DNA from: Eledone cirrhosa
Taxonomy: Eukaryota
NCBI GenBank assembly: GCA_964016885.1
Contig: OZ024743.1
Location: 126,976,001 to 127,040,000 of the forward strand
Direction: 5' to 3'
DNA length: 64,000 bases
The translations under genes and the position numbers were made by a program. The notes below the pieces were generated by a model, which was given only the letters and a program-made list of their open reading frames with translations, had not been told where the DNA came from and did no database searches. Position 1 is the first letter of the stretch. Every line of letters starts with the position of its first letter. This document shows positions 2,840-63,464 of the stretch, in pieces.

Positions 2840-2963
2840 CTATTTTCTTTAGTGCCTGGTCTGTCATCCTCCACATCAAACTGCCACCGTTCCAGTACTT
2901 CATTAGTATCAGCACACAGGATTACTATCACCAACTTCTCTAACATCATATTAGATAACCATT
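2840..2963 (-). CDS. MAD2L1: MAD2 (mitotic spindle assembly checkpoint HORMA protein) internal coding exon, 124 bp, equivalent to vertebrate MAD2L1 exon 3
   Basis: Minus strand: ...TTCTAACCTTTTCTAG|AATGG...GAAAATAG|GTAGTT. Translation (E)WLSNMMLEKLVIVILCADTNEVLERWQFDVEDDRPGTKEN(S/R) contains the MAD2 signature KLVxVI...EVLERWQFD. Its phase-1 start completes codon G|AA from the exon at 63318-63464, and there are no stops. Confidence 0.95.
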
Positions 2964-2992
2964 CTAGAAAAGGTTAGAAACAGAATTAGTCA
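2964..2992 (-). promoter_or_regulatory. 3' splice signal: candidate branch point, pyrimidine tract and AG
   Basis: Minus strand TGACTAATTCTGTTTCTAACCTTTTCTAG. A CTAAT branch-like motif has its A ~23 nt before the exon, and a second CTAAC lies closer to it. Confidence 0.65.
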
Positions 2993-5900
2993 CTCCTTTA
3001 TATACAAATAACTGTGGTACACAACAATATAAACAGTAGCTGTTGTACACTACATTATTACCACAAACTGTGCTATAATATATTATCATCACTAGGTGCA
3101 GTATAAATCATTATAATCACTGGCTGAGCTATAATACATTATCAACACTAGCTGTGGTATAATGCATTATCAACACTGGCTGTGGTATAATACATTATCA
3201 ACACTGGCTGAGCTATAATACATTATCAACACTAGCTGTGGTATAATGCATTATCAACACTGGCTGTGGTATAATACATTATCAACACTGGCTGTGGTAT
3301 AATACATTATCAACACTAGCTGTGGTATAATGCATTATCAACACTGGCTGTGGTATAATACATTATCAACACTGGCTGTGATATAATGCATTATCAACAC
3401 TGGCTGTGGTATAATACATTATCAACACTAGCGGTGGTATAATGCATTATCAACACTGGCTGTGGTATAATACATTATCAACACTAGCTGTGGTATAATG
3501 CATTATCAACACTGGCTGTGGTATAATACATTATCAACACTAGCTGTGGTATAATGGATTATCAACACTGGCTGTGGTATAATACATTATCAACAGTGGC
3601 TGTGGTATAATGCATTATCAACAGTGGCTGTGGTATAATGCATTATCAACACTAGCTGTCGTATAATACATTATCAACACTGGCTGTGGTATAATGCTTT
3701 ATCAACACTGGCTGTGGTATAATACAATATCAACACTGGCTGTGGTATAATGCATTATCAACACTGGCTGTGGTATAATACATTATCAACACTAGCTGTG
3801 GTATAATACATTATCAACACTAGCTGTGGTATAATGCATTATCAACACTGGCTGTGATATAATGCATTATCAAAACTAGCTGTGATATAATGCATTATCA
3901 AAACTAGCTGTGGTATAATGCATTATCAACACTAGCTGTGGTATAATACATTATCAACGCTGGCTGTGATTGTTTGTACTACATTATCAACACTGGCTGT
4001 GGTATAATGCATTATCAACGCTGGCTGTGGTATAATGCTTTATCAACACTGGCTGTGGTATAATACATTATCAACACTGGCTGTGGTATAATGCATTATC
4101 TACACTGGCTGTGGTATAATGCATTATCAACGCTAGCTGTGGTATAATGCATTATCAACGCTAGCTGTGGTATAATGCATTATCAACGCTAGCTGTGGTA
4201 TAATGCATTATCAACGCTGGCTGTGGTATAATGCATTATCAACACTGGCGGTGGTATAATGCATTATCAACACTGGCTGTGGTATAATGCATTATCAACG
4301 CTGGCTGTGGTATAATGCATTATCAACACTGGCTGTGGTATAATACATTATCAACACTTGCTGTGGTATAATGCATTATCAACACTAGCTGTGGTATAAT
4401 ACATTATCAACACTGGCTGTGGTATGATGCATTATCAACAGTGGCTGTAGTATAATGCATTATTAACACTGGCTGTGGTATAATGCATTATCAAATGCAG
4501 GTGCGGTATAATGCATTATCAACACTGGCTGTGGTATAATGCATTATCAACACTGGCTGTGGTATAATACATTATCAACAGTGGCTGTGGTATAATGCAT
4601 TATCAACGCTGGCTGTGGTATAATGCATTATCAACACTGGCTGTGGTATAATACATTATCAACACTGTCTGTGGTATAATACATTATCAACACTAGCTGT
4701 GGTATAATGCATTATCAACACTGGCTGTGATATAATGCATTATCAACACTGGCTGTGGTATAATACATTTTCAACAGTGGCTGTGGTATAATGCATTATC
4801 AACAGTGGCTGTGGTATAATGCATTATCAACACTAGCTGTCATATAATACATTATCAACACTGGCTGTGGTATAATGCTTTATCAACACTCGCTGTGGTA
4901 TAATACAATATCAACACTGGCTGTGGTATAATGCATTATCAACACTGGCTGTGGTATAATACATTATCAACACTAGCTGTGGTATAATGCATTATCAACA
5001 CTGGCTGTGATATAATGCATTATCAAAACTAGCTGTGATATAATGCATTATCAAAACTAGCTGTGGTATAATGCATTATCAACACTAGCTGTGGTATAAT
5101 ACATTATCAACGCTGGCTGTGATTGTTTGTACTACATTATCAACACTGGCTGTGGTATAATGCATTATCAACGCTGGCTGTGGTATAATGCTTTATCAAC
5201 ACTGGCTGTGGTATAATACATTATAAACACTGGCTGTGGTATAATGCATTATCTACACTGGCTGTGGTATAATGCATTATCAACGCTAGCTGTGGTATAA
5301 TGCATTATCAACGCTAGCTGTGGTATAATGCATTATCAACGCTGGCTGTGGTATAATGCATTATCAACACTGGCTGTGGTATAATGCATTATCAACACTG
5401 GCTGTGGTATAATGCATTATCAACACTGGCTGTGGTATAATGCATTATCAATGCTGGCTGTGGTATAATGCATTATCAATGCTGGCTGTGGTATAATAAA
5501 TTATCAACACTGGCTGTGGTATAATACATTATCAACACTTGCTGTGGTATAATGCATTATCAACACTAGCTGTGGTATAATACATTATCAACACTGGCTG
5601 TGGTATGATGCATTTTCAACAGTGGCTGTAGTATAATGCATTATCAACACTGGCTGTGGTATAATGCATTATTAACACTGGCTGTGGTATAATGCATTAT
5701 CAAATGCAGGTGCGGTATAATGCATTATCAACACTGGCTGTGGTATAATGCATTATCAACAGTGGCTGTGGTATAATGCATTATCAACAGTGGCTGTGGT
5801 ATAATGCATTATCAACGCTGGCTGTGGTATAATGCATTATCAACACTGGCTGTGGTATATTACATTATCAACACTAGCTGTGGTATAATACATTATCAAC

Positions 5901-8900
5901 ACTGGCTGTGGTATAATGCATTATCAACACTGTCTGTGGTATAATGCATTATCAACAGTGGCTGTAGTATAATGCATTATAAACGCTGGCTGTGGTATAA
6001 TATATTATCAACACTGGCTGTGGTATAATGCATTATTAACACTGGCTGTGGTATAATGCATTATCAAATGTAGGTGTGGTATAATGCATTATCAACACTG
6101 GCTGTGGTATAATGCATTATCAACAGTGGCTGTGGTATAATGCATTATCAACGCTGGCTGTGGTATAATACATTATCAACACTAGCTGTTGTATAATACA
6201 TTATCAATGCTGGCTGTAGTATAATGCATTATCAACACTAGCTGTGGTATAATACATTATCAATGCTGGCTGTGGTATAATGCATTATCAACACTGGCTG
6301 TGGTATAATGCATTATCAACACTGGCTGTGGTATAATACATTATCAACAGTGGCTGTGGTATAATGCATTATCAACAGTGGCTGTGGTATAATGCATTAT
6401 CAACGCTGGCTGTGGTATAATGCATTATCAACACTGGCTGTGGTATAATGCATTATCAACACTGGCTGTGGTATAATACATTATCAACACTAGCTGTGGT
6501 ATAATACATTATCAACACTAGCTGTAGTATAATACATTATCAACACTGGCTGTGGTATAATGCATTATCAACACTGGCTGTGGTATAATGCATTATCAAC
6601 AGTGGCTGTAGTATAATGCATTATAAACGCTGGCTGTGGTATAATATATTATCAACACTGGCTGTGGTATAATGCATTATTAACAATGGCTGTGGTATAA
6701 TGCATTATCAAAATTAGGTGTGGTATAATGCATTATCAACACTGGCTGTGGTATAATACATTATCAACAGTGGCTGTGGTATAATGCATTATCAACACTG
6801 GCTGTGGTATAATGCATTATCAACGCTGGCTGTGGTATAATACATTATCAACACTGGCTGTGGTATAATACATTATCAACACTAGCAGTGGTATAATACA
6901 TTATCAATGCTGGCTGTGGTATAATGCATTATCAACACTAGCTGTGGTATAATACATTATCAACACTAGCTGTGGTATAATACATTATCAATGCTGGCTG
7001 TGGTATAATGCATTATCAACACTGGCTGTGGTATAATACATTATCAACACTGGCTGTGGTATAATACATTATCAACACTGGCTGTGGTATAATACATTAT
7101 CAACACTGACTGTGGTATAATGCATTATCAACACTGGCTGTGATATAATACATTATCAACACTGGCTGTGGTATAATGCATTATCAACACTGCCTGTGGT
7201 ATAATGCATTATCAACACTGGCTGTGGTATAATGCATTATCAACACTGGCTGTGGTATAATACATTATCAACACTAGCTGTGGTATAATACATTATCAAC
7301 ACTAGCTGTGGTATAATACATTATCAACACTAGCTGTGGTATAATACATTATCAATGCTGGCTGTGGTATAATGCATTATCAACACTAGCTGTGGTATAA
7401 TGCATTATCAACACTAGCTGTGGTATAATACATTATCAATGCTGGCTGTGGTATAATGCATTATCAACACTGGCTGTGGTATAATACATTATCAACACTG
7501 GCTGTGGTATAATACATTATCAACACTGGCTGTGGTATAATACATTATCAACACTGGCTGTGGTATAATGCATTATCAACACTGGCTGTGGTATAATGCA
7601 TTATCAACACTGGCTGTGGTATAATGCATTATCAATACTGGCTGTGGTATAATACATTATCAACACTGGCTGTGGTATAATACATTATCAACACTGGCTG
7701 TGGTATAATACATTATCAACACTAGCTGTGGTATAATGCATTATCAACACTGGCTGTGGTATAATGCATTATCAACAGTGGCTGTGGTATAATGCATTAT
7801 CAACAGTGGCTGTGGTATAATGCATTATCAACACTAGCTGTGGTATAATGCATTATCAACACTAGCTGTGGTATAATGCATTATAAACAGTGGCTGTGGT
7901 ATAATACATTATCAACACTAGCTGTGGTATAATACATTATCAACACTAGCTGTGGTATAATACATTATCAACACTGGCTGTGGTATAATGCATTATCAAC
8001 ACTGGCTGTGGTATAATACATTATCAACACTAGCTGTGGTATAATGCATTATCAACACTGACTGTGGTATAATGCATTATCAACACTAGCTGTGGTATAA
8101 TGCATTATCAACACTGGCTGTGGTATAATGCATTATCAACACTGGCTGTGGTATAATACATTATCAACACTGGCTGTTGTATAATACATTATCAACACTG
8201 GCTGTGGTATAACACATTATCAACACTGGCTGTGGTATAATACATTATCAACACTGGCTGTGGTGTAACGCATTATCCACACTGGCTGTGGTATAACACA
8301 TTATCAACAGTGGCTGTGGTATAATGCATTATCAACACTGGCTATGGTATAATACATTATCAACACTGGCTATGGTATAATACATTATCAACACTGGCTG
8401 TAGTATAATACATTATCAACACTGGCTGTAGTATAATACATTATCAACACTGGCTGTGGTATAATACATTATCAACACTGGCTGTGGTATAATGCATTAT
8501 CAACACTGGCTATGGTATAATACATTATCAACACTGGCTGAAGTATAATATATTATCAACACTGGCTGTGGTATAATACATTATCAACACTGGCTGTGGT
8601 ATAATGCATTATCAACACTGGCTATGTATAATACATTATCAACACTGGCTATGGTATAATACATTATCAACACTGGCTGTGGTATAATACATTATCAACA
8701 CTGGCTGTAGTATAATACATTATCAACACTGGCTGTAGTATAATACATTATCAACACTGGCTGTGGTATAATACATTATCAACACTGGCTGTAGTATAAT
8801 GCATTATCAACACTGGCTGTGGTATAATACATTATCAACACTGGCTGTGGTATAATACATTATCAACACTGGCTGAAGTATAATATATTATCAACACTGA

Positions 8901-10537
8901 CTGTGGTATAATACATTATCAACACTAGCTGTGGTATAAGACATTATCAATGCTGGCTGTTGTATAATGCATTATCAACACTAGCTGTGGTATAATTCAT
9001 TATCAATGATGGCTGTGGTATAATACATTATCAACACTGGCTGTGGGATAATACATTATCAACACTGGCTGTGGGATAATGCATTATCAACACAAGCTGT
9101 GGTATAATGTATTATCAACACTGGTTTTGGTATAATGCATTATCAACACTGGTTGTGGTATAATACATTATCAACGCTGGCTGTGGTATAATGCATTATC
9201 AACACTGGCTGTGGTATAATACATTATCAACACTGGCTGTGGTATAATACATTATCAACACTGGCTGTGGTATAATACATTATCAACACTGGCTGTGGTA
9301 TAATACATTATCAACACTGGCTGTGGTATAATACATTATCAACACTGGATGTGGTATAATGCATTATAAACACTGGCTGTGGTATAATGCATTATCAATA
9401 GTGGCTGTCGTATAATGCATTATCAACATTAGCTGTCGTATAATGCATTATCAACATTAGCTGTGGTATAATGCATTATCAACACTGGCTGTGGTATAAT
9501 ACATTATCAACACTGGCTGTGGTATAATACATTATCAACACTGGCTGTGGTATAAGACATTATCAACAGTGGCTGTGGTATAATACATTATCAACACTGG
9601 CTGTCGTATAATGCATTATCAACACTGGCTGTGGTATAATGCATTATCAACAGTGGCTGTGGTATAATACATTATCAACACTGGCTGTGGTATAATACAT
9701 TATCAACGCTGGCTGTGGTATAATACATTATCAACGCTGGCTGTGGTATAATGCATTATCAAACCTGGCTGTGGTATAATACATTATCAACACTAGCTGT
9801 GGTATAATGCATTATCAACACTAGCTGTGGTATAATGCATTATAAACACTGGCTGTGGTATAATACATTATCAACACTAGCTGTGGTATAATACATTATC
9901 AACACTAGCTGTGGTATAATACATTATCAACACTGGCTGTGGTATAATGCATTATCAACATTGGCTGTGCTATAATGCATTATCAACACTAGCTGTGGTA
10001 TAATGCTTTATCAACACTAGCTGTGGTATAATGCTTTATCAACACTAGCTGTGGTATAACACATTATCAACACTAGCTGTGGTATAATACATAATCAACA
10101 CTAGCTGTGGTATAATACATAATCAACACTAGCTGTGGTATAATGCATTATCAACACTGGCTGTGGTATAATGCATTATCAACACTGGCTGTGGTATAAT
10201 GCATTATCAACACTGGCTGTGGTATCATGCATTATCAACACTGGCTGTGGTATAATGCATTATCAACACTGGCTGTGGTATAATGCATTATCAACACTGG
10301 CTGTGGTATAATGCATTATCAACACTGGCTGTGGTATAATGCATTATCAACACTGACTGTGGTATAATGCATTATCAACAGTGGCTGTGGTATAATAAAT
10401 TATCAACACTGGCTGTGGTATAATACATTATCCATGCTGGCTGTGGTATAATACATTATCCATGCTGGCTGTGGTATAATACATTATCCATGCTGGCTGT
10501 GGTATAATACATTATCCATGCTGGCTGTGGTATAATG

Positions 10538-10761
10538 TATTATACCACAGCCAGTGTTGATAATGTATTATACCACAGCTAGTGTTGATAATGCGTTATA
10601 CCACAGCCACTGTTGATAATGCATTATACCACAGCCACTGTTGATAATGCATTATACCACAGCCACTGTTGATAATGCATTATACCACAGCCAGTGTTGA
10701 TAAAGCATTATACCACAGCCAGTGTTGATAATGCATTATACCACAGCCAGTGTTGATAATG
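10538..10761 (-). repeat. Inverted block of 8 satellite monomers (left arm of palindrome 10532-10991), copy 1
   Basis: The + strand switches to TATACCACAGCCAGTGTTGATAATG.. for 224 bp (8 x 28). Both switches occur at ATAATG|TATTAT. Confidence 0.97.
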
Positions 10762-13700
10762 TATTATCAACACTGGCTGTGGTATAATGCATTATCAACA
10801 CTGGATGTGGTATAATGCTTTATCAACACTGGCTGTGGTATAATGCATTATCAACAGTGGCTGTGGTATAATGCATTATCAACAGTGGCTGTGGTATAAT
10901 GCATTATCAACAGTGGCTGTGGTATAACGCATAATCAACACTAGCTGTTGTATAATACATTATCAACACTGGCTGTGGTATAATACATTATCACACTGAC
11001 TGTGGTATAATGCATTATCAACACTGACTGTGGTATAATGCATTATCAACACTAGCTGTGGTATAATGCTTTATCAACACTCGCTGTGGTATAATGCATT
11101 ATCAACACTGGCTGTGGTATAATACATTATCAACACTGGCTGTGGTATAATACATTATCAACGCTGGCTGTGGTATAAAATATTATCAATGCTGGCTGTG
11201 GTATAATGCATTATCAACACTGGCTGTGGTATAATGCATTATCAACACTGGCTGTGGTATAATGCATTATCAACACTGGCTGTGGTGTAACGCATTATCC
11301 ACACTGGCTGTGGTATAACACATTATCAACACTGGCTGTGGTATAATACATTATCAACACTGGCTGTGGCATAACGCATTATCCACACTGGCTGTGGTAT
11401 AACACATTATCAACAGTGGCTCTGGTATAACACATTATCAACACTAGCTGTGGTATAATTCATTATCAATGATGGCTGTGGTATAATACATTATCAACAC
11501 TGGCTGTGGTATAATACATTATCAACACTGGCTGTGGTATAATGCATTATCAACACTGGCTATGGTATAATACATTATCAACACTGGCTATGGTATAATA
11601 CATTATCAACACTGGCTGTAGTATAATACATTATCAACACTGGCTGTAGTATAATACATTATCAACACTGGCTGTGGTATAATACATTATCAACACTGGC
11701 TGTGGTATAATACATTATCAACACTGGCTGTGGTATAAGACATTATCAATGCTGGCTGTTGTATAATGCATTATCAACACTGGCTGTGGTATAATGCATT
11801 ATCAACACTAGCTGTGGTATAATTCATTATCAATGATGGCTGTGGTATAATACATTATCAACACTGGCTGTGGGATAATACATTATCAACACTGGCTGTG
11901 GGATAATGCATTATCAACACAAGCTGTGGTATAATGCATTATCAACACTGGTTTTGGTATAATGCATTATCAACACTGGCTGTGGTATAATGCATTATCA
12001 ACACTGGCTGTGGTATAATACATTATCAACACTGGCTGTGGTATAATACATTATCAACACTGGCTGTGGTATAATACATTATCAACACTGGCTGTGGTAT
12101 AATACATTATCAACACTGGCTGTGGTATAATGCATTATCAACACTGGATGTGGTATAATGCATTATAAACACTGGCTGTGGTATAATGCATTATCAATAG
12201 TGGCTGTCGTATAATGCATTATCAACATTAGCTGTCGTATAATGCATTATCAACATTAGCTGTGGTATAATGCATTATCAACACTGGCTGTGGTATAATA
12301 CATTATCAACACTGGCTGTGGTATAATACATTATCAACACTGGCTGTGGTATAAGACATTATCAACAGTGGCTGTGGTATAATACATTATCAACACTGGC
12401 TGTCGTATAATGCATTATCAACACTGGCTGTGGTATAATGCATTATCAACAGTGGCTGTGGTATAATACATTATCAACACTGGCTGTGGTATAATACATT
12501 ATCAACACTGGCTGTGGTATAATACATTATCAACGCTGGCTGTGGTATAATACATTATCAACGCTGGCTGTGGTATAATGCATTATCAACACTGGCTGTG
12601 GTATAATACATTATCAACACTGGCTGTGGTATAAGACATTATCAATGCTAGGTGTGGTATAATGCATTATCAACACTGGCTGTGGTATAATGCATTATCA
12701 ACACTAGCTGTGGTATAATTCATTATCAATGATGGCTGTGGTATAATACTTTCTCAACACTGGCTATGGTATAATACATTATCAACACTGGCTGTGGGAT
12801 AATGCATTATCAACACAAGCTGTGGTATAATGCATTATCAACACTGGTTGTGGTATAATGCATTATCAACACTGGTTGTGGTATAATACATTATCAACAC
12901 TGGCTGTGGTATAATGCATTATCAACACTGGCTGTGGTATAATGCATTATCAACAGTGGCTGTCGTATAATGCATTATCAACATTAGCTGTGGTATAATG
13001 CATTATTAACACTAGCTGTGGTATAATGCATTATCAACACTGGCTGTGGTATAATGCATTCTCAACAGTGGCTGTGGTATAATGCATTATCAACACTGGC
13101 TATGGTATAATGCATTATTAACACTGGCTGTGGTATAATACATTATCAACACTGGCCGTGGTATAATACATTATCAACACTGGCCGTGGTATAATACATT
13201 ATCAACACTGGCTGTGGTATAATACATTATCAACACTGGCTGTGGTATAATGCATTATCAACACTGGCTGTGGTATAATGCATTATCAACACTAGCTGTG
13301 GTATAATTCATTATCAATGATGGCTGTGGAATACATTATCAACACTGGCTGTGGGATAATACATTATCAACACAGGCTGTGGGATAATGCATTATCAACA
13401 TAAGCTGTGGTATAATGCATTATCAACACTGGTTGTGGTATAATGCATTATCAACACTGGTTGTGGTATAATACATTATCAACGCTGGCTGTGGTATAAT
13501 AGATTATCAACGCTGGCTGTGGTATAATGCATTATCAACACTGGCTGTGGTATAATACATTATCAACACTGGCTGTGGTATAATGTATTATCAACACTGG
13601 CTGTGGTATAATACATTATCAACACTGGCTGTGGTATAATGCATTATCAACACTGGATGTGGTATAATGCATTATCAACACTGGCTGTGGTATAATACAT

Positions 13701-15265
13701 TATCAACACTGGCTGTGGTATGATGCATTATCAACAGTGGCTGTGGTATAATGCATTATCAACAGTGGCTGTGGTATAATGCATTATTAACAGTGGCTGT
13801 GGTATAATGCATTATCAACAGTGGCTGTCGTATAATGTATTATCAACAGTGGCTGTGGTATAATGCATTATCAACATTAGCTGTGGTATAATGCATTATC
13901 AACACTGGCTGTGGTATAATACATAATCAACACTGGCTGTGGTATAATGCATTATCAACAGTGGCTGTCGTATAATGCATTATCAACATTAGCTGTGGTA
14001 TAATGCATTATTAACACTAGCTGTGGTATAATGCATTATCAACACTAGCTATGGTATAAGACATTATCAATGCTGGCTGTGGTATAATGCATTATCAACA
14101 CTGGCTGTGGTATAATTCATTATCAACACTAGCTGTGGTATAATTAATTATCAATGATGGCTGTGGTATAATACATTATCAACACTGGCTGTGGGATAAT
14201 GCATTATCAACACAAGCTGTGGTATAATGCATTATCAACACTGGTTGTGGTATAATGCATTATCAACACTGGTTGTGGTATAATACATTATCAACGCTGG
14301 CTGTGGTATAATGCATTATCAACACTGGCTGTGGTATAATACATTATCAACACTGGCTGTGGTATAATACATTATCAACGCTGGCTGTGGTATAATACAT
14401 TATCAACGCTGGCTGTGGTATAATGCATTATCAAACCTGGCTGTGGTATAATACATTATCAACACTAGCTGTGGTATAATGCATTATCAACACTAGCTGT
14501 GGTATAATGCATTATAAACACTGGCTGTGGTATAATACATTATCAACACTAGCTGTGGTATAATACATTATCAACACTAGCTGTGGTATAATACATTATC
14601 AACACTGGCTGTGGTATAATGCATTATCAACATTGGCTGTGCTATAATGCATTATCAACACTAGCTGTGGTATAATGCTTTATCAACACTAGCTGTGGTA
14701 TAATGCTTTATCAACACTAGCTGTGGTATAACACATTATCAACACTAGCTGTGGTATAATACATAATCAACACTAGCTGTGGTATAATACATAATCAACA
14801 CTGGCTGTGGTATAATGCATTATCAACACTGGCTGTGGTATAATGCATTATCAACACTGGCTGTGGTATCATGCATTATCAACACTGGCTGTGGTATAAT
14901 GCATTATCAACACTGGCTGTGGTATAATGCATTATCAACACTGGCTGTGGTATAATGCATTATCAACACTGGCTGTGGTATAATGCATTATCAACACTGA
15001 CTGTGGTATAATGCATTATCAACACTGGCTGTGGTATAATAAATTATCAACACTGGCTGTGGTATAATAAATTATCAACACTGGCTGTGGTATAATACAT
15101 TATCAATGCTGGCTGTGGTATAATACATTATCAATGCTGGCTGTGGTATAATACATTATCCATGCTGGCTGTGGTATAATACATTATCCATGCTGGCTGT
15201 GGTATAATACATTATCCATGCTGGCTGTGGTATAATACATTATCCATGCTGGCTGTGGTATAATG

Positions 15266-15489
15266 TATTATACCACAGCCAGTGTTGATAATGTATTATA
15301 CCACAGCTAGTGTTGATAATGCGTTATACCACAGCCACTGTTGATAATGCATTATACCACAGCCACTGTTGATAATGCATTATACCACAGCCACTGTTGA
15401 TAATGCATTATACCACAGCCAGTGTTGATAAAGCATTATACCACAGCCAGTGTTGATAATGCATTATACCACAGCCAGTGTTGATAATG
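15266..15489 (-). repeat. Inverted block of 8 monomers, copy 2
   Basis: Same sequence, variant order and junctions as copy 1; 224 bp. Confidence 0.97.
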
Positions 15490-42200: not shown

Positions 42201-42245
42201 CTGGCTGTGGTATAATACATTATCCATGCTGGCTGTGGTATAATG

Positions 42246-48700: not shown

Positions 48701-51700
48701 GGTATAATGCATTATCAACACTAGCTGTGGTATAATTCATTATCAATGATGGCTGTGGTATAATACATTATCAACACTGGCTGTGGGATAATACATTATC
48801 AACACTGGCTGTGGGATAATGCATTATCAACACTGGCTTTGGTATAATGCATTATCAACACTGGTTGTGGTATAATACATTATCAACGCTGGCTGTGGTA
48901 TAATGCATTATCAACACTGGCTGTGGTATAATACATTATCAACGCTGGCTGTGGTATAATACATTATCAACACTGGCTGTGGTATAATACATTATCAACA
49001 CTGGCTGTGGTATAATGCATTATCAACACTGGCTGTGGTATAATGCATTATCAACACTGGATGTGGTATAATGCATTATAAACACTGGCTGTGTTATAAT
49101 ACATTATCAACACTGGCTGTGGTATAATGCATTATCAATAGTGGCTGTCGTATAATGCATTATCAACATTAGCTGTCGTATAATGCATTATCAACATTAG
49201 CTGTGGTATAATGCATTATCAACACTGGCTGTGGTATAATACATTATCAACACTGGCTGTGGTATAATACATTATCAACACTGGCTGTGGTATAATACAT
49301 TATCAACACTGGCTGTGGTATAATACATAATCAACAGTGGCTGTGGTATAATGCATTATCAACACTGGCTGTGGTATAATGCATTATCAACACTGGCTGT
49401 GGTATAATGCATTATCAACAGTGGCTGTGGTATAATACATTATCAACACTGGCTGTGGTATAATACATTATCAACACTGGCTGTGGTATAATACATTATC
49501 AACACTGGCTGTGGTATAATGCATTATCAACACTGGCTGTGGTATAATGCATTATCAACACTGGCTGTGGTATGAGACATTATCAATGCTGGCTGTGGTA
49601 TAATGCATTATTAACACTGGCTGTGGTATAATGCATTATCAACACTAGCTGTGGTATAATTCATTATCAATGATGGCTGTGGTATAATACATTATCAACA
49701 CTGGCTGTGGGATAATGCATTATCAACACAAGCTGTGGTATAATGCATTATCAACACTGGTTGTGGTATAATGCATTATCAACGCTGGCTGTGGTATAAT
49801 GCATTATCAACACTGGCTGTGGTATAATACATAATCAACACTGGCTGTGGTATAATACATTATCAACACTGGATGTGGTATAATACATTATCAACACTGG
49901 CTGTGGTATAATGCATTATCAACACTGAATGTGGTATAATGCATTATCAACAGTGGCTGTGGTATAATGCATTATCAACAGTGGCTGTCGTATAATGCAT
50001 TATCAACAGTGGCTGTCGTATAATGCATTATCAACATTAGCTGTGGTATAATGCATTATTAACACTAGCTGTGGTATAATGCATTATCAACACTGGCTGT
50101 GGTATAATGCATTCTCAACAGTGGCTGTGGTATAATGCATTATCAACACTGGCTATGGTATAATGCATTATTAACACTGGCTGTGGTATAATGCATTATC
50201 AACAGTGGCTGTGGTATAATGCATTATCAACAGTGGCTGTCGTATAATGCATTATCAACAGTGGCTGTGGTATAATGCATCATCAACATTAGCTGTGGTA
50301 TAATGCATTATCAACACTGGCTGTGGTATAATACATTATCAACACTGGCTGTCGTATAATGCATTATCAACACTGGCTATGGTATAATACATTATTAACA
50401 CTGGCTGTGGTATAATACATTATCAACACTGGCTGTGGTATAATACATTATCAACACTGGCTGTGGTATAATACATTCTCAACAGTGGCTGTGGTATAAT
50501 GCATTATCAACACTGGCTATGGTATAATCCATTATCAACACTGGCTGTGGTATAATACATTATCAACACTGGCTGTGGTATAATACATTATCAACACTGG
50601 CTGTGGTATAATACATTATCAACACTGGCTGTGGTATAATACATTATCAACACTGGCTGTGGTATAATACATTATCAACACTGGTTGTGGTATAATACAT
50701 TATCAACACTGGTTGTGGTATAATACATTATCAACACTGGCTGTGGTATAATACATTATCAACACGGGCTGTGGTATAATGCATTATCAGCACTGGCTGT
50801 GGTATAATGCATTATCAACAGTGGCTGTGGTATAATACATTATCAACACTAGCTGTGGTATAAGACATTATCAATGCTGGCTGTGGTATAATGCATTATC
50901 AACGCTGGCTGTGGTATAATGCATTATCAACACTAGCTGTGGTATAATTCATTATCAATGATGGCTGTGGTATAATACATTATCAACACTGGCTGTGGTA
51001 TAATACATTATCAACACTGGCTGTGGGATAATGCATTATCAACACTGGTTGTGGTATACTGCATTATCAACACTGGTTGTGGTATAATACATTATCAACG
51101 CTGGCTGTGGTATAATGCATTATCAACACTGGCTGTGGTATAATACATTATCAACACTGGCTGTGGTATAATGCATTATCAACACTGGCTGTGGTATAAT
51201 GCATTATCAACACTGGCTGTCGTATAATGCATTATCAACAGTGGCTGTCGTATAATGCATTATCAACATTAGCTGTGGTATAATGCATTATTAACACTGG
51301 CTGTGGTATAATGCATTATTAACACTGGCTGTGGTATAATGCATTATCAACACTGGCTGTGGTATAATGCATTATCAACACTGGCTGTGGTATAATGCAT
51401 TATCAACACTGGCTGTGGTATAATACATTATCAACACTGGCTGTGGTATAATTCATTATCAACACTAGCTGTGGTATAATTAATTATCAATGATGGCTGT
51501 GGTATAATACATTATCAACACTGGCTGTGGGATAATGCATTATCAACACAAGCTGTGGTATAATGCATTATCAACACTGGTTGTGGTATAATGCATTATC
51601 AACACTGGTTGTGGTATAATACATTATCAACGCTGGCTGTGGTATAATGCATTATCAACACTGGCTGTGGTATAATACATTATCAACACTGGCTGTGGTA

Positions 51701-54700
51701 TAATGCATTATCAACAGTGGCTGTGGTATAATGCATTATCAACAGTGGCTGTCGTATAATGCATTATCAACATTAGCTGTGGTATAATGCATTATTAACA
51801 CTAGCTGTGGTATAATGCATTATCAACACTGGCTGTGGTATAATGCATTCTCAACAGTGGCTGTGGTATAATGCATGATAAACACTGGCTATGGTATAAT
51901 GCATTATCAACACTGGCTGTGGTATAATGCATTATCAACACTGGCTGTGGTATAATACATTATCAACACTGGCTGTGGTATAATACATTATCAACACTGG
52001 CTGTGGTATAATACATTATCAACACTGGCTGTGGTATAATACATTATCAACACTGGCTGTGGTATAATGCATCATCAACACTGGCTGTGGTATAATGCAT
52101 TATCAACACTGGCTGTGGTATAATGCATTATCAACACTGGCTGTGGTATAATGCATTATCAACACTGGCTGTGGTATAATGCATTATCAACACTAGCTGT
52201 GGTATAATTCATTATCAATGATGGCTGTGGTATAATACATTATCAACACTGGCTGTGGGATAATGCATTATCAACACAAGCTGTGGTATAATGCATTATC
52301 AACACTGGTTGTGGTATAATGCATTATCAACACTGGTTGTGGTATAATACATTATCAACGCTGGCTGTGGTATAATACATTATCAACGCTGGCTGTGGTA
52401 TAATACATTATCAACGCTGGCTGTGGTATAATGTATTATCAACACTGGCTGTGGTATAATACATTATCAACACTGGCTGTGGTATAATACATTATCAACA
52501 CTGGCTGTGGTATAATATATTATCAACACTGGCTGTGGTATAATATATTATCAACACTGGCTGTGGTATAATATATTATCAACACTGGCTGTGGTATAAT
52601 ATATTATCAACACTGGCTGTGGTATAATGCATTATCAACACTGGCTGTGGTATAATGCATTATCAACACTGGATGTGGTATAATACATTATCAACACTGG
52701 CTGTGGTATAATGCATTATCAACAGTGGCTGTGGTATAATGCATTATCAACAGTGGCTGTGGTATAATGCATTATCAACAGTGGCTGTCGTATAATGCAT
52801 TATTAACAGTGGCCCTGGTATAATGCATTATCAACATTAGCTGTGGTATAATGCATTATCAACAGTAGCTGTCGTATAATACATTATCAACACTGGCTGT
52901 GGTATAATACATTATCAACACTGGCTGTGGTATAATGCATTATCAACAGTGGCTGTCGTATAATGCATTATCAACATTAGCTGTGGTATAATGCATTATT
53001 AACACTAGCTGTGGTATAATGCATTATCAACACTGGCTGTGGTATAATACATTATCAACACTGGCTGTGGTATAATGCATTATCAACACTGGCTGTGGTA
53101 TAATGCATTATCAACACTGGCTATGGTATAATACATTATTAACACTGGCTGTGGTATAATACATTATCAACACTGGCTGTGGTATAATACATTATCAACA
53201 CTGGCTGTGGTATAATACATTATCAACACTGGCTGTGGTATAATACATTATCAACACTGGCTGTGGTATAATGCATTATCAACACTGGCTGTGGTATAAT
53301 GCATTATCAACACTGGCTATGGTATAATGCATTATCAACACTGGCTGTGGTATAATACATTATCAACACTGGCTGTGGTATAATACAATATCAACACTGG
53401 CTGTGGTATAATACATTATCAACACTGGCTGTGGTATAATACATTATCAATACTGGCTGTGGTATAATGCATTATCAACACTGGCTGTGGTATAATGCAT
53501 TATCAACAGTGGCTGTGGTATAATGCATTATCAACAGTGGCTGTGGTATAATGCATTATCAACAGTGGCTGTGGTATAATGCATTATCAACAGTGGCTGT
53601 GGTATAACGCATTATCAACACTGGCTGTGGTATAATACATTATCAACACTGGCTGTGGTATAATGCATTATCAACATTAGCTGTGGTATAATGCATTATC
53701 AACACAAGCTGTGGTATAATGCATTATCAACACTGGTTGCGGTATAATACATTATCAATGCTGGCTGTGGTATAATACATTATCAACACTGGCTGTGGTA
53801 TAATGCATTATCAACACTAGATGTGGTATAATGCATTATCAACACTGGCTGTGGTATAATACATTATCAACACTGGCTGTGGTATAATGCATTATCAGCA
53901 GTGGCTGTGGTATAATGCATTATCAACAGTGGCTGTCGTATAATGCATTATCAACAGTGGCTGTGGTATAATGCATTATCAACATTAGCTGTGGTATAAT
54001 GCATTATCAACATTAGCTGTGGTATAACGCATTATCAACAGTAGCTGTCGTATAATGCATTATCAACAGTGGCTGTCGTATAATGCATTATCAACATTAG
54101 CTGTGGTATAATGCATTATTAACACTAGCTGTGGTATAATGCATTATCAACACTGGCTGTGGTATAATGCATTATCAACAGTGGCTGTGGTATAATACAT
54201 TATCAACACTGGCTGTGGTATAATACATTATCAACACTGGCTGAAGTATAATATATTATCAACACTGGCTGTGGTATAATACATTATCAACACTGGCTGT
54301 GGTATAAGACATTATCAATGCTGGCTGTGGTATAATGCATTATCAACACTGGCTGTGGTATAATGCATTATCAACACTAGCTGTGGTATAATTCATTATC
54401 AATGATGGCTGTGGTATAATACATTATCAACACTGGCTGTGGGATAATACATTATCAACACTGGCTGTGGGATAATGCATTATCAACACTGGCTTTGGTA
54501 TAATGCATTATCAACACTGGTTGTGGTATAATACATTATCAACGCTGGCTGTGGTATAATGCATTATCAACACTGGCTGTGGTATAATACATTATCAACG
54601 CTGGCTGTGGTATAATACATTATCAACACTGGCTGTGGTATAATACATTATCAACACTGGCTGTGGTATAATGCATTATCAACACTGGCTGTGGTATAAT

Positions 54701-57108
54701 GCATTATCAACACTGGATGTGGTATAATGCATTATAAACACTGGCTGTGTTATAATACATTATCAACACTGGCTGTGGTATAATGCATTATCAATAGTGG
54801 CTGTCGTATAATGCATTATCAACATTAGCTGTCGTATAATGCATTATCAACATTAGCTGTGGTATAATGCATTATCAACACTGGCTGTGGTATAATACAT
54901 TATCAACACTGGCTGTGGTATAATACATTATCAACACTGGCTGTGGTATAATACATTATCAACACTGGCTGTGGTATAATACATAATCAACAGTGGCTGT
55001 GGTATAATGCATTATCAACACTGGCTGTGGTATAATGCATTATCAACACTGGCTGTGGTATAATGCATTATCAACAGTGGCTGTGGTATAATACATTATC
55101 AACACTGGCTGTGGTATAATACATTATCAACACTGGCTGTGGTATAATACATTATCAACACTGGCTGTGGTATAATGCATTATCAACACTGGCTGTGGTA
55201 TAATGCATTATCAACACTGGCTGTGGTATGAGACATTATCAATGCTGGCTGTGGTATAATGCATTATTAACACTGGCTGTGGTATAATGCATTATCAACA
55301 CTAGCTGTGGTATAATTCATTATCAATGATGGCTGTGGTATAATACATTATCAACACTGGCTGTGGGATAATGCATTATCAACACAAGCTGTGGTATAAT
55401 GCATTATCAACACTGGTTGTGGTATAATGCATTATCAACGCTGGCTGTGGTATAATGCATTATCAACACTGGCTGTGGTATAATACATAATCAACACTGG
55501 CTGTGGTATAATACATTATCAACACTGGATGTGGTATAATACATTATCAACACTGGCTGTGGTATAATGCATTATCAACACTGAATGTGGTATAATGCAT
55601 TATCAACAGTGGCTGTGGTATAATGCATTATCAACAGTGGCTGTCGTATAATGCATTATCAACAGTGGCTGTCGTATAATGCATTATCAACATTAGCTGT
55701 GGTATAATGCATTATTAACACTAGCTGTGGTATAATGCATTATCAACACTGGCTGTGGTATAATGCATTCTCAACAGTGGCTGTGGTATAATGCATTATC
55801 AACACTGGCTATGGTATAATGCATTATTAACACTGGCTGTGGTATAATGCATTATCAACAGTGGCTGTGGTATAATGCATTATCAACAGTGGCTGTCGTA
55901 TAATGCATTATCAACAGTGGCTGTGGTATAATGCATCATCAACATTAGCTGTGGTATAATGCATTATCAACACTGGCTGTGGTATAATACATTATCAACA
56001 CTGGCTGTCGTATAATGCATTATCAACACTGGCTATGGTATAATACATTATTAACACTGGCTGTGGTATAATACATTATCAACACTGGCTGTGGTATAAT
56101 ACATTATCAACACTGGCTGTGGTATAATACATTCTCAACAGTGGCTGTGGTATAATGCATTATCAACACTGGCTATGGTATAATCCATTATCAACACTGG
56201 CTGTGGTATAATACATTATCAACACTGGCTGTGGTATAATACATTATCAACACTGGCTGTGGTATAATACATTATCAACACTGGCTGTGGTATAATACAT
56301 TATCAACACTGGCTGTGGTATAATACATTATCAACACTGGTTGTGGTATAATACATTATCAACACTGGTTGTGGTATAATACATTATCAACACTGGCTGT
56401 GGTATAATACATTATCAACACGGGCTGTGGTATAATGCATTATCAGCACTGGCTGTGGTATAATGCATTATCAACAGTGGCTGTGGTATAATACATTATC
56501 AACACTAGCTGTGGTATAAGACATTATCAATGCTGGCTGTGGTATAATGCATTATCAACGCTGGCTGTGGTATAATGCATTATCAACACTAGCTGTGGTA
56601 TAATTCATTATCAATGATGGCTGTGGTATAATACATTATCAACACTGGCTGTGGTATAATACATTATCAACACTGGCTGTGGGATAATGCATTATCAACA
56701 CTGGTTGTGGTATACTGCATTATCAACACTGGTTGTGGTATAATACATTATCAACGCTGGCTGTGGTATAATGCATTATCAACACTGGCTGTGGTATAAT
56801 ACATTATCAACACTGGCTGTGGTATAATGCATTATCAACACTGGCTGTGGTATAATGCATTATCAACACTGGCTGTCGTATAATGCATTATCAACAGTGG
56901 CTGTCGTATAATGCATTATCAACATTAGCTGTGGTATAATGCATTATTAACACTGGCTGTGGTATAATGCATTATTAACACTGGCTGTGGTATAATGCAT
57001 TATCAACACTGGCTGTGGTATAATGCATTATCAACACTGGCTGTGGTATAATGCATTATCAACACTGGCTGTGGTATAATACATTATCAACACTGGCTGT
57101 GGTATAAT
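45770..57108. repeat. 5656-bp (202-monomer) apparently exact tandem duplication within the array
   Basis: Variant markers recur at an offset of exactly 5656: ATAATTCAT (45797/51453), GCATGATAAAC (46221/51877), CTGAAG (48590/54246), ACACGGGC (50766/56422). Confidence 0.9.
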
Positions 57109-60100
57109 ACATTATCAACACTGGCTGTGGTATAATACATTATCAACACTGGCTGTGGTATAATGCATTATCAACACTGGCTGTGGTATAATGCATTATC
57201 AACACTGGCTGTGGTATAATGCATTATCAACACTGGCTGTGGTATAATGCATTATCAATGATGGCTGTGGGATAATACATTATCAACACTGGCTGTGGGA
57301 TAATGCATTATCAACACTGGTTGTGGTATAATACATTATCAACACTGGCTGTGGTATAATACATTATCAACACTGGCTGTGGTATAATACATTATCAACA
57401 CTGGCTGTGGTATAATATATTATCAACACTGGCTGTGGTATAATATATTATCAACACTGGCTGTGGTATAATACATTATCAACACTGGCTGTGGTATAAT
57501 ACATTATCAACACTGGCTGTGGTATAATGCATTATCAACACTGGCTGTGGTATAATACATTATCAACACTGGCTGTGGTATAATGCATTATCAACAGTGG
57601 CTGTGGTATAATGCATTATCAACAGTGGCTGTGGTATAATGCATTATCAACAGTGGCTGTGGTATAATGCATTATCAACAGTGGCTGTCGTATAATGCAT
57701 TATCAACAGTGGCTGTGGTATAATGCATTATCAACATTAGCTGTGGTATAATGCATTATCAACAGTAGCTGTCGTATAATACATTATCAACACTGGCTGT
57801 GTTATAATGCATTATCAACACTGGCTGTGGTATAATACATTATCAATACTGGCTGTGGTATAATGCATTATCAACACTGGCTGTGGTATAATGCATTATC
57901 AACAGTGGCTGTGGTATAATACATTATCAACACTAGCTGTGGTATAAGACATTATCAATGCTGGCTGTGGTATAATGCATTATCAACACTGGCTGTGGTA
58001 TAATGCATTATCAACACTGGCTGTGGTATAATACATTATCAACACTGGCTGTGGGATAATGCATTATCAACACTGAATGTGGTATAATGCATTATCAACA
58101 CTGGCTGTGGTATAATGCATTATCAACAGTGGCTGTCGTATAATGCATTATCAACAGTGGCTGTCGTATAATGCATTATCAACATTAGCTGTGGTATAAT
58201 GCATTATTAACACTAGCTGTGGTATAATGCATTATCAACACTGGCTGTGGTATAATGCATTATCAACACTGGCTATGGTATAATGCATTATTAACACTGG
58301 CTGTGGTATAATACATTATCAACACTGGCTGTGGTATAATACATTATCAACACTGGCTGTGGTATAATACATTATCAACACTGGCTGTGGTATAATACAT
58401 TATCAACACTGGCTGTGGTATAATACATTATCAACACTGGCTGTGGTATAATGCATTATCAACACTAGCTGTGGTATAATTCATTATCAATGATGGCTGT
58501 GGTATAATACATTATCAACACTGGCTGTGGGATGATACATTATCAACACTGGCTGTGGGATAATGCATTATCAACACAAGCTGTGGTATAATGCATTATC
58601 AACACTGGTTGTGGTATAATGCATTATCAACACTGGTTGTGGTATAATACATTATCAACGCTGGCTGTGGTATAATACATTATCAACGCTGGCTGTGGTA
58701 TAATGCATTATCAACACTGGCTGTGGTATAATGCATTATCAACACTGGCTGTGGTATAATATATTATCAACACTGGCTGTGGTATAATACATTATCAACA
58801 CTGGCTGTGGTATAATACATTATCAACACTGGCTGTGGTATAATGCATTATCAACACTGGATGTGGTATAATGCATTATCAACACTGGCTGTGGTATAAT
58901 GCATTATCAACAGTGGCTGTGGTATAATGCATTATCAACAGTGGCTGTGGTATAATGCATTATCAACAGTGGCTGTCGTATAATGCATTATCAACAGTGG
59001 CTGTGGTATAATGCATTATCAACATTAGCTGTGGTATAATGCATTATCAACAGTAGCTGTCGTATAATACATTATCAACACTGGCTGTGGTATAATACAT
59101 TATCAACATTGGCTGTGGTATAATGCATTATCAACAGTGACTGTCGTATAATGCATTATCAACATTAGCTGTGGTATAATGCATTATCAACACTGGCTGT
59201 GGTATAATACATTATCAACACTGGCTGTGGTATAATGCATTATCAACACTGGCTGTGGTATAATACATCATTAACACTGGCTGTGGTATAATACATTATC
59301 AACACTGGCTGTGGTATAATACATTATCAACACTGGCTGTGGTATAATACATTATCAACACTGGCTGTGGTATAATACATTATCAACACTGGCTGTGGTA
59401 TAATACATTATCAACACTGGCTGTGGTATAATGCATTCTCAACAGTGGCTGTGGTATAATGCATTATCAACACTGGCTATGGTATAATGCATTATCAACA
59501 CTGGCTGTGGTATAATACATTATCAACACTGGCTGTGGTATAATACATTATCAACACTGGCTGTGGTATAATACATTATCAACACTGGCTGTGGTATAAT
59601 ACATTATCAACACTGGCTGTGGTATAATACATTATCAACACTGGCTGTGGTATAATGCATTATCAATACTGGCTGTGGTATAATGCATTATCAACAGTGG
59701 CTGTGGTATAATACATTATCAACACTAGCTGTGGTATAAGGCATTATCAATGCTGGCTGTGGTATAATGCATTATCAACACTGGCTGTGGTATAATACAT
59801 TATCAACACTGGCTGTGGGATAATGCATTATCAACACAAGCTATGGTATAATGCATTATCAACACTGGTTGTGGTATAATGCATTATCAACACTGGTTGT
59901 GGTATAATGCATTATCAACACTGGTTGTGGTATAATACATTATCAACGCTGGCTGTGGTATAATACATTATCAACGCTGGCTGTGGTATAATGCATTATC
60001 AACACTGGCTGTGGTATAATGCATTATCAACACTGGCTGTGGTATAATACATTATCAACACTGGCTGTGGTATAATATATTATCAACACTGGCTGTGGTA

Positions 60101-62489
60101 TAATACATTATCAACACTGGCTGTGGTATAATGCATTATCAACACTGGATGTGGTATAATGCATTATCAACACTGGCTGTGGTATAATGCATTATCAACA
60201 GTGGCTGTGGTATAATGCATTATCAACAGTGGCTGTGGTATAATGCATTATCAACAGTGGCTGTGGTATAATGCATTATCAACAGTGGCTGTCGTATAAC
60301 GCATTATCAACAGTGGCTGTGGTATAATGCATTATCAACATTAGCTGTGGTATAATGCATTATCAACAGTAGCTGTCGTATAATACATTATCAACACTGG
60401 CTGTGGTATAATACATTATCAACATTGGCTGTGGTATAATGCATTATCAACAGTGACTGTCGTATAATGCATTATCAACATTAGCTGTGGTATAATGCAT
60501 TATTAACACTAGCTGTGGTATAATGCATTATCAACACTGGCTGTGGTATAATACATTATCAACACTGGCTGTGGTATAATGCATTATCAACACTGGCTGT
60601 GGTATAATACATCATTAACACTGGCTGTGGCATAATACATTATCAACACTGGCTGTGGTATAATACATTATCAACACTGGCTGTGGTATAATACATTATC
60701 AACACTGGCTGTGGTATAATACATTATCAACACTGGCTGTGGTATAATGCATTCTCAACAGTAGCTGTGGTATAATGCATTATCAACACTGGCTATGGTA
60801 TAATGCATTATCAACACTGGCTGTGGTATAATACATTATCAACACTGGCTGTGGTATAATACATTATCAACACTGGCTGTGGTATAATACATTATCAACA
60901 CTGGCTGTGGTATAATACATTATCAACACTGGCTGTGGTATAATGCATTATCAATACTGGCTGTGGTATAATGCATTATCAACAGTGGCTGTGGTATAAT
61001 ACATTATCAACACTAGCTGTGGTATAAGGCATTATCAATGCTGGCTGTGGTATAATGCATTATCAACACTGGCTGTGGTATAATGCATTATCAACACTGG
61101 CTGTGGTATAATACATTATCAACACTGGCTGTGGGATAATGCATTATCAACACAAGCTATGGTATAATGCATTATCAACACTGGTTGTGGTATAATGCAT
61201 TATCAACACTGGTTGTGGTATAATACATTATCAACGCTGGCTGTGGTATAATGCATTATCAACACTGGCTGTGGTATAATACATTATCAACACTGGCTGT
61301 GGTATAATACATTATCAACACTGGCTGTGGTATAATACATTATCAACACTGGCTGTGGTATAATACATTATCAACACTGGCTGTGGTATAATGCATTATC
61401 AACACTGGATGTGGTATAATGCATTATCAACACTGGCTGTGGTATAATACATTATCAACACTGGCTGTGGTATAATGCATTATCAGCAGTGGCTGTGGTA
61501 TAATGCATTATCAACACTGGCTGTCGTATAATGCATTATCAACAGTGGCTGTGGTATAATGCATTATCAACATTAGCTGTGGTATAACGCATTATCAACA
61601 GTAGCTGTCGTATAATGCATTATCAACAGTGGCTGTCGTATAATGCATTATCAACATTAGCTGTGGTATAATGCATTATTAACACTAGCTGTGGTATAAT
61701 GCATTATCAACACTGGCTGTGGTATAATGCATTATCAACAGTGGCTGTGGTATAATACATTATCAACACTGGCTGTGGTATACTATATTATCAACACTGG
61801 CTGTGGTATAATACATTATCAACACTGGCTGTGGTATAATACATTATCAACACTGGCTGTGGTATAATGCATTCTCAACAGTGGCTGTGGTATAATGCAT
61901 TATCAACACTGGCTATGGTATAATGCATTATCAACACTGGCTGTGGTATAATACATTATCAACACTGGCTGTGGTATAATACATTATCAACACTGGCTGT
62001 GGTATAATACATTATCAACACTGGCTGTGGTATAATACATTATCAACACTGGCTGTGGTATAATACATTATCAACACAGGCTGTGGTATAATACATTATC
62101 AACACTGGCTGTGGTATAATGCATTATCAACACTGGCTGTGGTATAATGCATTATCAACAGTGGCTGTGGTATAATACATTATCAACACTGGCTGTGGTA
62201 TACTATATTATCAACAGTGGCTGTGGTATAATGCATTATCAACACTGGCTATGGTATAATACATTATCAACACTGGCTGTGGTATAATACATTATCAACA
62301 CTGGCTGTGGTATAATGCATTATCAACACTGGCTGTGGTATAATGCATTATCAACACTGGCTGTGGTATAATGCATTATCAACAGTGGCTGTGGTATAAT
62401 GCATTATCAACACTGGCTGTGGTATACTATATTATCAACAATAGGTGCGACAGAACTCATTAGCATACTCTAGTGAAGGCACTAGACTA

Positions 62490-62560
62490 AGTGGCACATA
62501 ATGTCCTTGAGCAAGACATCATTCCACATTGCATCAATGCACTAAGCTGAAAATGCATAA
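62490..62560 (+). mobile_element. Degraded CORE-like SINE fragment
   Basis: TGTCCTTGAGCAAGACATCATTCCACATTGC resembles the CORE-SINE motif TGTG[T/A]CCTTG[G/A]GCAAG.CACT, recognised from memory. Confidence 0.45.
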
Positions 62561-62659
62561 CAGCACATCTGAGGTTTACCTTACAACAGACTGGTGTCTT
62601 GTCTTCTAGTTTAAGTATCATCACCTGTTCCTCTGGTATATTTACCAGAAACCATTTGT

Positions 62660-62912
62660 AATATTAGTGCCATACCAAAACGCATCCAGTCCACCTAGTA
62701 AGATGGTAGTGCAAGTGTTACAACAGAAGCACCCCGTCGACCCAGTAAGGTGGCTGGCATTATGAATGGCATCGAATGATAGAAAACCAAAACAAAAAAA
62801 AAAGGAGTGTATGAGCAAGACACGGTCACCTGACCTGTCTAGCCTCATAACGCTACAGCTCGTCAATTTAAACAAGCATGGCAAATTGATCTTAAGCAAT
62901 GATGATGATGAT
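62660..62912 (+). mobile_element. SINE with RTE-type 3' end and (GAT)n tail
   Basis: Shares GTAAGGTGG[C/T]TGG with the modules at 2068-2362 and the body of 2655-2775. Ends in AGCATGG...TTAAGCAATGATGATGATGATG. Confidence 0.65.
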
Positions 62913-63059
62913 GACAGCTGGTTTCTGGTTTGAAGACACTTTCCTTCTTACCAACACTCTTGGAGATACTGCCCTTCCACATTTCCTTCTTTACATTATG
63001 AACTACATCCTATCTCCTACAACATACATAGTTACAATCCATTGTCGACCCAATTTCTA

Positions 63060-63137
63060 TCACAAGGTTTGTGTCGACTCAAGGCTTTAGTAAAGACACT
63101 TGCCCAAGATGCCACGCAATGGGATCAAACCCAGTGA
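63060..63137 (-). mobile_element. tRNA-derived CORE-like SINE fragment
   Basis: Reverse complement GGGTTTGATCCCATTGCGTGGCATCTTGGGCAAGTGTCTTTACTAAAGCCTTGAGTCGAC: a degenerate Pol III B-box followed by CORE-like CTTGGGCAAGT. Confidence 0.6.
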
Positions 63138-63317
63138 TACCTACATCCACACATTTCATAATATAGTTCTAAATACAGTACAGCTGAAAATAAGGGATAA
63201 TTATATCTGGAACATCTTTCAATCAGTAGTAACTGAAAACTAAACAATAACCACAGCTCTATAGTAAACCAAAGTATCTAAGAGGGAATTATTTTGGTCA
63301 CTTCAATAACCCCTCAC

Positions 63318-63464
63318 CTTTGACTTGTGTCATAACGTCATCAAAGTATTTTTTCAGTTCTTCAACTTCAAATACAAACAAGGATAAACCAAATTTTTTT
63401 TCTTCTGAAAACGACTCTGGGGGATAGATTCCACGTTGGTATAAAATATTGTTAACACCATAAT
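63318..63464 (-). CDS. MAD2L1: MAD2 internal coding exon, 147 bp, equivalent to vertebrate MAD2L1 exon 2
   Basis: Minus strand: TTTTATCTTTTTTTAG|ATTATGGT...CAAGTCAAAG|GTGAGG. Translation xYGVNNILYQRGIYPPESFSEEKKFGLSLFVFEVEELKKYFDDVMTQVK(E) contains the MAD2 signature ILYQRGIYP. It is a phase 1-1 exon of 49 codons with no stops. Confidence 0.96.

Follow-up and report, generated by a model that had tools for sequence, protein, structure and literature searches.

Tandem repeats that make up nearly the whole of an intron, in a gene that is transcribed through them, are described for the giant introns of the Drosophila Y-linked genes kl-3 and kl-5 (PMC6508621, PMC11207136; here and below, published work is cited for the parts of each source that were consulted). 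A similar arrangement is seen in the spindle-checkpoint gene MAD2 of the octopus Eledone cirrhosa, where 98.5% of the 60,354-bp intron 2, through which the gene would have to be transcribed, is a single array of a 28-bp repeat. The locus was analysed in a window of 64,000 nucleotides without any N (G000:C4:126976001-127040000, in an assembly of 2.996 Gb; positions given without a contig are those of the window). A sequence-only reading of this window had drawn the parallel with the Drosophila Y loops, and the parallel holds for the share of the intron that is repeat, but not for scale or for the kind of repeat. The MAD2 intron is 60 kb long as opposed to megabases, and its repeat amounts to 59.4 of the 77.4 kb of the gene (77%) as opposed to more than 99%, such that neither of these two hallmarks of Y-loop gigantism is present. 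In addition, the unit is a private 28-bp sequence rather than a simple satellite, and MAD2 serves mitosis in general and lies on a chromosome of 379 Mb, whereas kl-3 and kl-5 are Y-linked. Germline-restricted expression with dedicated RNA-binding factors is a feature of the Drosophila genes. We consider it likely, with a probability of roughly 0.7, that the array in MAD2 intron 2 is a tolerated, recently expanded private minisatellite that has grown without function.

The exons of MAD2 were located by tblastn with a MAD2A-like protein of Argonauta hians (P0001), in the window and 200 kb of flanking assembly. Together they form a complete open reading frame (ORF) of 612 nt and 203 amino acids, spread over five exons on the minus strand, and 184 of the 203 residues are identical to the Argonauta protein. 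The coding exons measure 70, 147, 124, 104 and 167 bp, and the introns between them, all of which are GT-AG, measure 9,917, 60,354, 4,109 and 2,455 bp. Exon 2 (63318..63464, with an AG acceptor and a GTGAGG donor) and exon 3 (2840..2963) lie within the window, and the coding part of exon 1 (G000:C4:127049382-127049451), exon 4 (G000:C4:126974627-126974730) and the coding part of exon 5 (G000:C4:126972005-126972171) lie outside it. Intron 2 (2964..63317) begins with GTGAGG and ends with CTTTTCTAG, and the reading frame is kept across exons 2 and 3, bearing out the earlier observation of two in-frame, canonically spliced exons that are 60,354 bp apart. The window also holds the 3' end of intron 1 (63465..64000) and the 5' part of intron 3 (1..2839), both of which extend past it on the same strand. 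LINE- and SINE-like fragments can be recognised by eye in introns 3 and 1 (positions 1-1620 and 63690-63930), and parts of intron 3 attract many contigs from sequencing runs.

Exon 2 matches residues 26-73 of the human MAD2A chain 5khu_T (E 3.9e-10) and exon 3 matches the adjacent residues 75-110 (E 1.8e-6), whereas similarity of the exons to MAD2B is found at E 0.24 or worse. Single exons are recognised by the Pfam HORMA profile with E values of 4.8e-5 and 0.001, each alone falling below the 24-bit cut-off. The HORMA domain is nearer to MAD2A than to MAD2B/REV7 or HORMAD and, as in MAD2A/MAD2L1 orthologues, the protein has 203 amino acids; no difference from these orthologues was noticed in the protein, intron 2 alone being unusual. 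In searches of the genome, which provide lower bounds, exon 2 returned one match from two candidates, and the HORMA profile returned four, namely the MAD2 exon in question, two on contig C12 and one on C24, the latter three being read by eye as HORMAD-like and REV7-like. Judged from these sequences MAD2 is apparently single-copy and intact, and the search for further copies that had been called for found none. Both exons belong to one intact gene, as the sequence-only reading had supposed, and the five exons of this gene rule out a mixture of paralogs or a pseudogene.

Evidence for splicing was sought in four of nine listed runs, which were compared with exons 3-5, the sample of run X1 (S1) being different from that of runs X2-X4. 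None of the nine is recorded as holding RNA, which says nothing about expression, and among the pieces listed for runs X5 and X6, which come from relatives, none falls on exon 3, which speaks neither for nor against splicing. Run X1 consists of 88 million letters of contigs, of a kind and tissue that are not on record. One of its contigs (record 3, 794 nt) matches exons 5, 4 and 3 in three pieces with 0 mismatches and with the introns missing, and is read as spliced RNA of exons 3-4-5. Past exon 3, the contig continues for 175 unplaced nucleotides that do not fit the intron, a length that would accommodate a further 145 nucleotides from exon 2 plus 30 from exon 1. Beyond the acceptor the match continues for 2 nucleotides, and because these letters are common to the end of exon 2, while the end of exon 1 shares none of them, the fit of the contig, rather than the junction letters, favours an exon 2-3 junction. 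The alternative, that MAD2 is not transcribed through the array, either because exon 2 is unjoined to exon 3 or because this is a silent copy, draws on the junction letters not being displayed, on the unrecorded kind of run X1, and on the lower bounds of the copy searches. Set against it are the 175 nucleotides and the 2-nucleotide overlap, an intact ORF, and the failure to find a second MAD2, and we regard it as the least probable of all the alternatives considered here.

The repeat is reported by the program TRF as one array at 3012..62440, with a period of 28, 2,122.9 copies, 92% matches and a length of 59,429 bp. What remains of intron 2 is 925 bp, comprising a unique 5' part of 877 bp (62441..63317, minus strand) and 48 unique bp (2964..3011, minus strand) that contain the pyrimidine tract, the acceptor and, as judged by eye, branch-point-like words. 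The earlier figures of about 2,120 repeats to be traversed and an intron of less than 1 kb were the array removed are therefore correct, as is a single array of about 59.4 kb; the term satellite, however, is better replaced by single-locus minisatellite, because the genome matches to the unit all fall in the window. For instance, a 27-mer of the unit is found 721 times in forward and 13 times in reverse orientation, in equal counts in the genome and in the window. With up to two mismatches, a 23-mer is found 1,903 and 29 times genome-wide, and all 1,932 of these matches lie inside the intron, as compared with 0 in 100 shuffles of the window. The array is private to MAD2 intron 2 in the assembly, with unassembled copies possible elsewhere. 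A dispersed satellite family is ruled out by the same counts (1,932 of 1,932 matches in the window). An origin from a dispersed element was also rejected, the closest copy in 1.36 Mb of other loci having 7 mismatches, with none within 6. The array has the properties of a single-locus minisatellite, in that a unit of between 10 and 100 bp is repeated in tandem at one locus, with variant units interspersed (163 variants in the 2,071 units that could be parsed) and blocks duplicated. The 200 kb of assembly on the flanks of the window contain no other minisatellite longer than 1 kb, and a compact MCM gene is found 350 kb from MAD2 (G000:C4:126,627,065-126,630,278).

The internal structure of the array points to growth by the duplication of blocks. 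When 30 blocks of 1 kb were tested, 12 were matched by another block of the array with 0-3 differences, as compared with a background of 101 differences per kb between random in-phase pairs, and such near-identical blocks sit at offsets of about 5-17 kb. For 7 of the 30 blocks, five of them near the ends of the array, there was no partner with fewer than 40 differences. Four blocks of units are inverted, with breakpoints inside a 12-bp palindrome that forms the core of the unit and that was equalled by 3 of 60 shuffles. Inverted block 1 (10539..10761, minus strand) consists of 7 whole units with both junctions in the palindromic core, blocks 2 (15267..15489) and 3 (23439..23661), also of 7 units on the minus strand, are copies of block 1, and block 4 (42247..42497, minus strand) consists of 8 units. 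Rare odd units also recur: a 33-bp variant twice (3964 and 5117) and, at five positions (13324, 18108, 26139, 34452 and 44976), a 25-bp deletion unit. Such units mark duplications that were inherited, and could be used as markers of assembly or allele.

The array also contains an exact tandem duplication (45770..57108), in which 5,683 bp are identical at an offset of 5,656. This represents either the latest duplication or a duplication in the assembly, since exact identity is what an assembly path used twice, or a mixture of alleles, would produce. It raises the alternative that the array is real and its length inflated or mis-joined in the assembly, and the raw support for an array flank is limited to the exon-3 junction, where a 539-nt contig (run X2, record 14) reads across exon 3 and on into the first copies of the repeat; run X2 may be the assembly's own source, and hence not independent. 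However, the window is without N, the exons lie in order and in frame on either side of the array, and towards the flank of exon 3 the copies at the edge become progressively decayed. At least one base per kb separates the members of most other block pairs, and these recur in a different order with inherited indels and inversions. Moreover, the unit is absent from the rest of the assembly, which provides no source for a mis-join, and about 54 kb would remain after removal of the exact duplication. Inflation in the assembly could explain the exact duplication but not the array, and we therefore consider an artefact of assembly unlikely as an account of the intron.

A local birth of the array is suggested because the array is private and because decayed copies, with 5-9 mismatches to the unit, lie at its edge beside exon 3 (3012..3123), making this edge the candidate birthplace. 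In the proposed sequence of events, a seed of 28 bp close to the 3' splice site would have been duplicated first, by slippage, and the array then enlarged through unequal exchange or gene conversion. A single template switch at the palindrome would have created the inversion, which later duplications would have copied. Growth would thus have come about by duplicating blocks again and again, and many of the genome's other private arrays seem to have grown likewise.

The inversions also raise the possibility that the array acts through its structure, with inverted blocks giving rise to long double-stranded RNA that is a substrate for editing or small RNAs, or through local silent chromatin. Inverted block 1 is predicted to fold into an RNA hairpin of about 200 bp (-300.5 kcal/mol over 421 nt, z -30.8), as compared with a predicted -121 kcal/mol for a non-inverted control stretch, and the palindrome in the unit is one that few shuffles reached. 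Coleoids are also known for heavy A-to-I editing of RNA. Against this, any inversion within a tandem array folds into such a hairpin, a long palindrome is not general among the 16 units compared, and no structured RNA family in Rfam matched the window. A structural role for the MAD2 array appears very improbable. Hairpin-prone units can likewise be rejected as a general cause of arrays, as only 2 of the 16 units have a palindrome reached by 5% of shuffles or fewer.

How a transcription unit might accommodate 59 kb of repeat is suggested by the signals that the repeat lacks. On the transcribed strand of the array there are 0 occurrences each of AATAAA, ATTAAA, GTRAG and a pyrimidine-tract AG. 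Because the splice signals lie outside the array, and because its transcribed strand is without a poly(A) hexamer, or a donor-like or acceptor-like word, the array is likely tolerated, and its cost would therefore be extra elongation time only.

To place MAD2 among other genes, about 54 control genes were surveyed through their domain parts, with the gaps between matched exons probed in part. In 16 CCT, HSP60 and MCM genes, 68 gaps between matched exons had a median of 1.1 kb and a maximum of 17.9 kb, and in ten proteasome genes gaps extended to about 9 kb, as judged by eye. Five of about 28 kinesin genes, grouped by eye, have gaps of more than 20 kb. Arrays of at least 5 kb were found in only one of the control genes, namely KIF25, two query exons of which are 98% identical to Octopus KIF25. 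Its ten collinear exons span 1.06 Mb (C1:5,383,747-6,445,196), and one of its introns measures about 457 kb. Of 16 probes in this intron, all without N, 15 contain arrays, with units of 49, 28, 15, 77 and 32 bp, and gaps are possible in the parts between probes. Additional KIF25 introns contain arrays of 52, 48, 65 and 58 bp. KIF25 is thus a stronger case than MAD2, and on a larger scale, and a giant intronic array as found in MAD2 is uncommon, yet not unique.

Long introns in this genome may also be free of such arrays. Two kinesin introns that were read whole, one of 92 kb (C15:267,000-359,003) and one of 52 kb (C4:218,663,288-218,715,519), contain no array of at least 5 kb. None was seen in 6 probes of a 115-kb kinesin gap (C12:50,263,333-50,378,948), or in the probes of kinesin gaps of 23 and 25 kb on C4, 27 kb on C12 and 28 kb on C15. 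Smaller arrays are present in two other kinesin genes, one of 3.75 kb with a 30-bp unit (L117:5839-9588) and one of 1.6 kb with a 29-bp unit (L116:5098-6676), and these possibly represent earlier stages of array growth.

The base rate of such arrays was estimated from 58 stretches of 10 kb, picked arbitrarily at round coordinates (39 on contigs C1-C4 and 19 on 16 other contigs), a sample that is not length-weighted random. Counting arrays of at least 5 kb with a period of at least 10, seven of the 58 stretches hold an array (95% interval for this share, 5-23%), five of them being filled, and arrays make up 10.8% of the bases. The units differ among all seven. Of three units checked by pattern, the first gave 153 matches, all in one place of about 12 kb, the second gave 422 matches that fit one place of about 35 kb, and the third gave 8,218 matches that fit one array of at least 400 kb, a single locus in the last two cases being deduced from match density in the first 100 places. 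The genome-wide proliferation of private minisatellites, taken alone, is probable. It is distinctly unlikely that this extends to an octopod lineage-wide engine that seeds private minisatellites at thousands of loci and enlarges each to tens or hundreds of kb, even within single-copy mitotic genes such as MAD2 and KIF25, with transcribed arrays and their hairpin-forming inversions acting as heritable, length-tunable rheostats on gene output, MAD2 intron 2 included.

Several of the larger arrays encountered deserve description. An array of 27-30 bp extends for at least 410 kb, from G000:C1:19,645,116 to beyond 20,055,000, with 8,218 forward and 5 reverse matches, its single locus again being deduced from match density in the first 100 places. 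At G000:C1:419,965,001-420,055,000, arrays of 54, 60, 49 and 27 bp follow one another with short unique spacers between them, and two of these arrays seemingly begin at the ends of dispersed-repeat fragments. By eye, no exons were recognised in these spacers, only retroelement-like fragments, no family scan having been made. On C3, an array with a 16-bp unit and a telomere-like G run fills 5 of 5 probes over 70 kb (G000:C3:184,970,001-185,040,000), near the middle of a 379-Mb chromosome. Contigs C1-C4 measure 379-443 Mb, while most of the others encountered fall within 30-136 Mb, a contrast suggestive of large fusions between chromosomes.

It had been proposed from the sequence that the length of the array could act as an intron-delay timer, or as a tunable control on the dosage of zygotic MAD2 in fast-dividing cells. 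The arithmetic behind this proposal is sound, in that the gene is 77.4 kb with the array and 18.0 kb without it, and at the rates of 1-4 kb/min assumed in the sequence-only reading the time to transcribe it would rise from 5-18 min to 19-77 min, an addition of tens of minutes. The compactness of the control housekeeping genes also speaks for a timer. Cephalopod cell cycles, however, last hours, which is longer than 19-77 min; for octopus, no figure for cell-cycle length was found in the titles and abstract openings of the literature searched. In the Drosophila embryo, long zygotic genes have been shown to undergo intron delay (PMC4209130), and the likeness to MAD2 is that a long primary transcript takes longer to finish; there, however, the zygotic genes concerned act in insect cell cycles of very short duration, and maternally deposited transcripts showed no delay. 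Mad2 protein is already present in unfertilised eggs of ascidians (PMC7290841), a finding on ascidians and not on octopus. The growth of the array is also recent and unstable, and because its near-identical block duplications are recent, drift in length fits better than a conserved delay. Finally, with similar or larger arrays in about 11% of sampled DNA and in several introns of KIF25, and with array-free introns of 92 and 52 kb in two kinesin genes, the proposed role in timing or dosage is unsupported, and we consider it quite improbable.

Several points weigh against a tolerated minisatellite without function. Neutrality is a default rather than the result of a test. Housekeeping genes are compact here and MAD2 departs from them, given the short gaps of the CCT, HSP60 and MCM genes and the single array-bearing gene among the controls. 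The missing processing signals largely follow from the sequence of one 28-bp unit and may be due to chance. The intron was read in one individual of one species, and the exon 2-3 junction was seen indirectly only.

If the array in MAD2 is a tolerated private minisatellite, then a checkpoint gene that is essential apparently copes with a transcript four times as long, which is a curiosity in itself. Of greater interest than a MAD2 timer is the pattern across the genome, since giant arrays account for about one tenth of the sampled DNA, every one of them has a unit of its own, and they build introns of 60-460 kb in ordinary genes. Such private arrays would represent a route to the growth of genomes and introns apart from transposons. 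Because they should vary between individuals, they also provide a natural test set for the cost and timing effects of intron length. There is in addition a practical warning, as the MAD2 gene would be split under the upper limit of 20 kb that one octopus annotation placed on intron length (PMC9795677).

Repeat-enlarged introns as such are known in octopuses. In O. minor, simple repeats make up 14.7% of the genome and the mean intron is 5.4 kb (PMC6279123), and in O. vulgaris the median intron is 2,467 bp (PMC10700109); the consulted parts of these two papers make no mention of minisatellites that are private to one locus, tens to hundreds of kb long and located in single-copy genes. More broadly, among the papers listed in searches on octopus and cephalopod satellites, minisatellites and tandem repeats, none concerned giant private intronic minisatellites in cephalopods. 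For instance, the words 'satellite' and 'tandem' are absent from the main text of the O. vulgaris genome (PMC10700109), as are 'satellite' and 'intron' from that of the O. vulgaris repeat annotation (PMC13282606), and the vampire squid main text (PMC12682272) contains none of the repeat words searched for. The A. fangsiao paper, in the portion consulted, names tandem repeats in its methods only (PMC9795677), and the consulted portion of a chicken genome paper (PMC9974502) offers no intron parallel.

A further comparison is with the single-locus minisatellite, or variable number of tandem repeats (VNTR), to which the MAD2 array is alike in its unit of 28 bp, confinement to one locus, interspersed variants and growth by block duplication. 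It differs in its internal inversions and in its size, typical VNTRs being mostly shorter than 20 kb and the MAD2 array, at 59 kb, far longer. The MAD2 array works like a VNTR that has grown to the size of a satellite.

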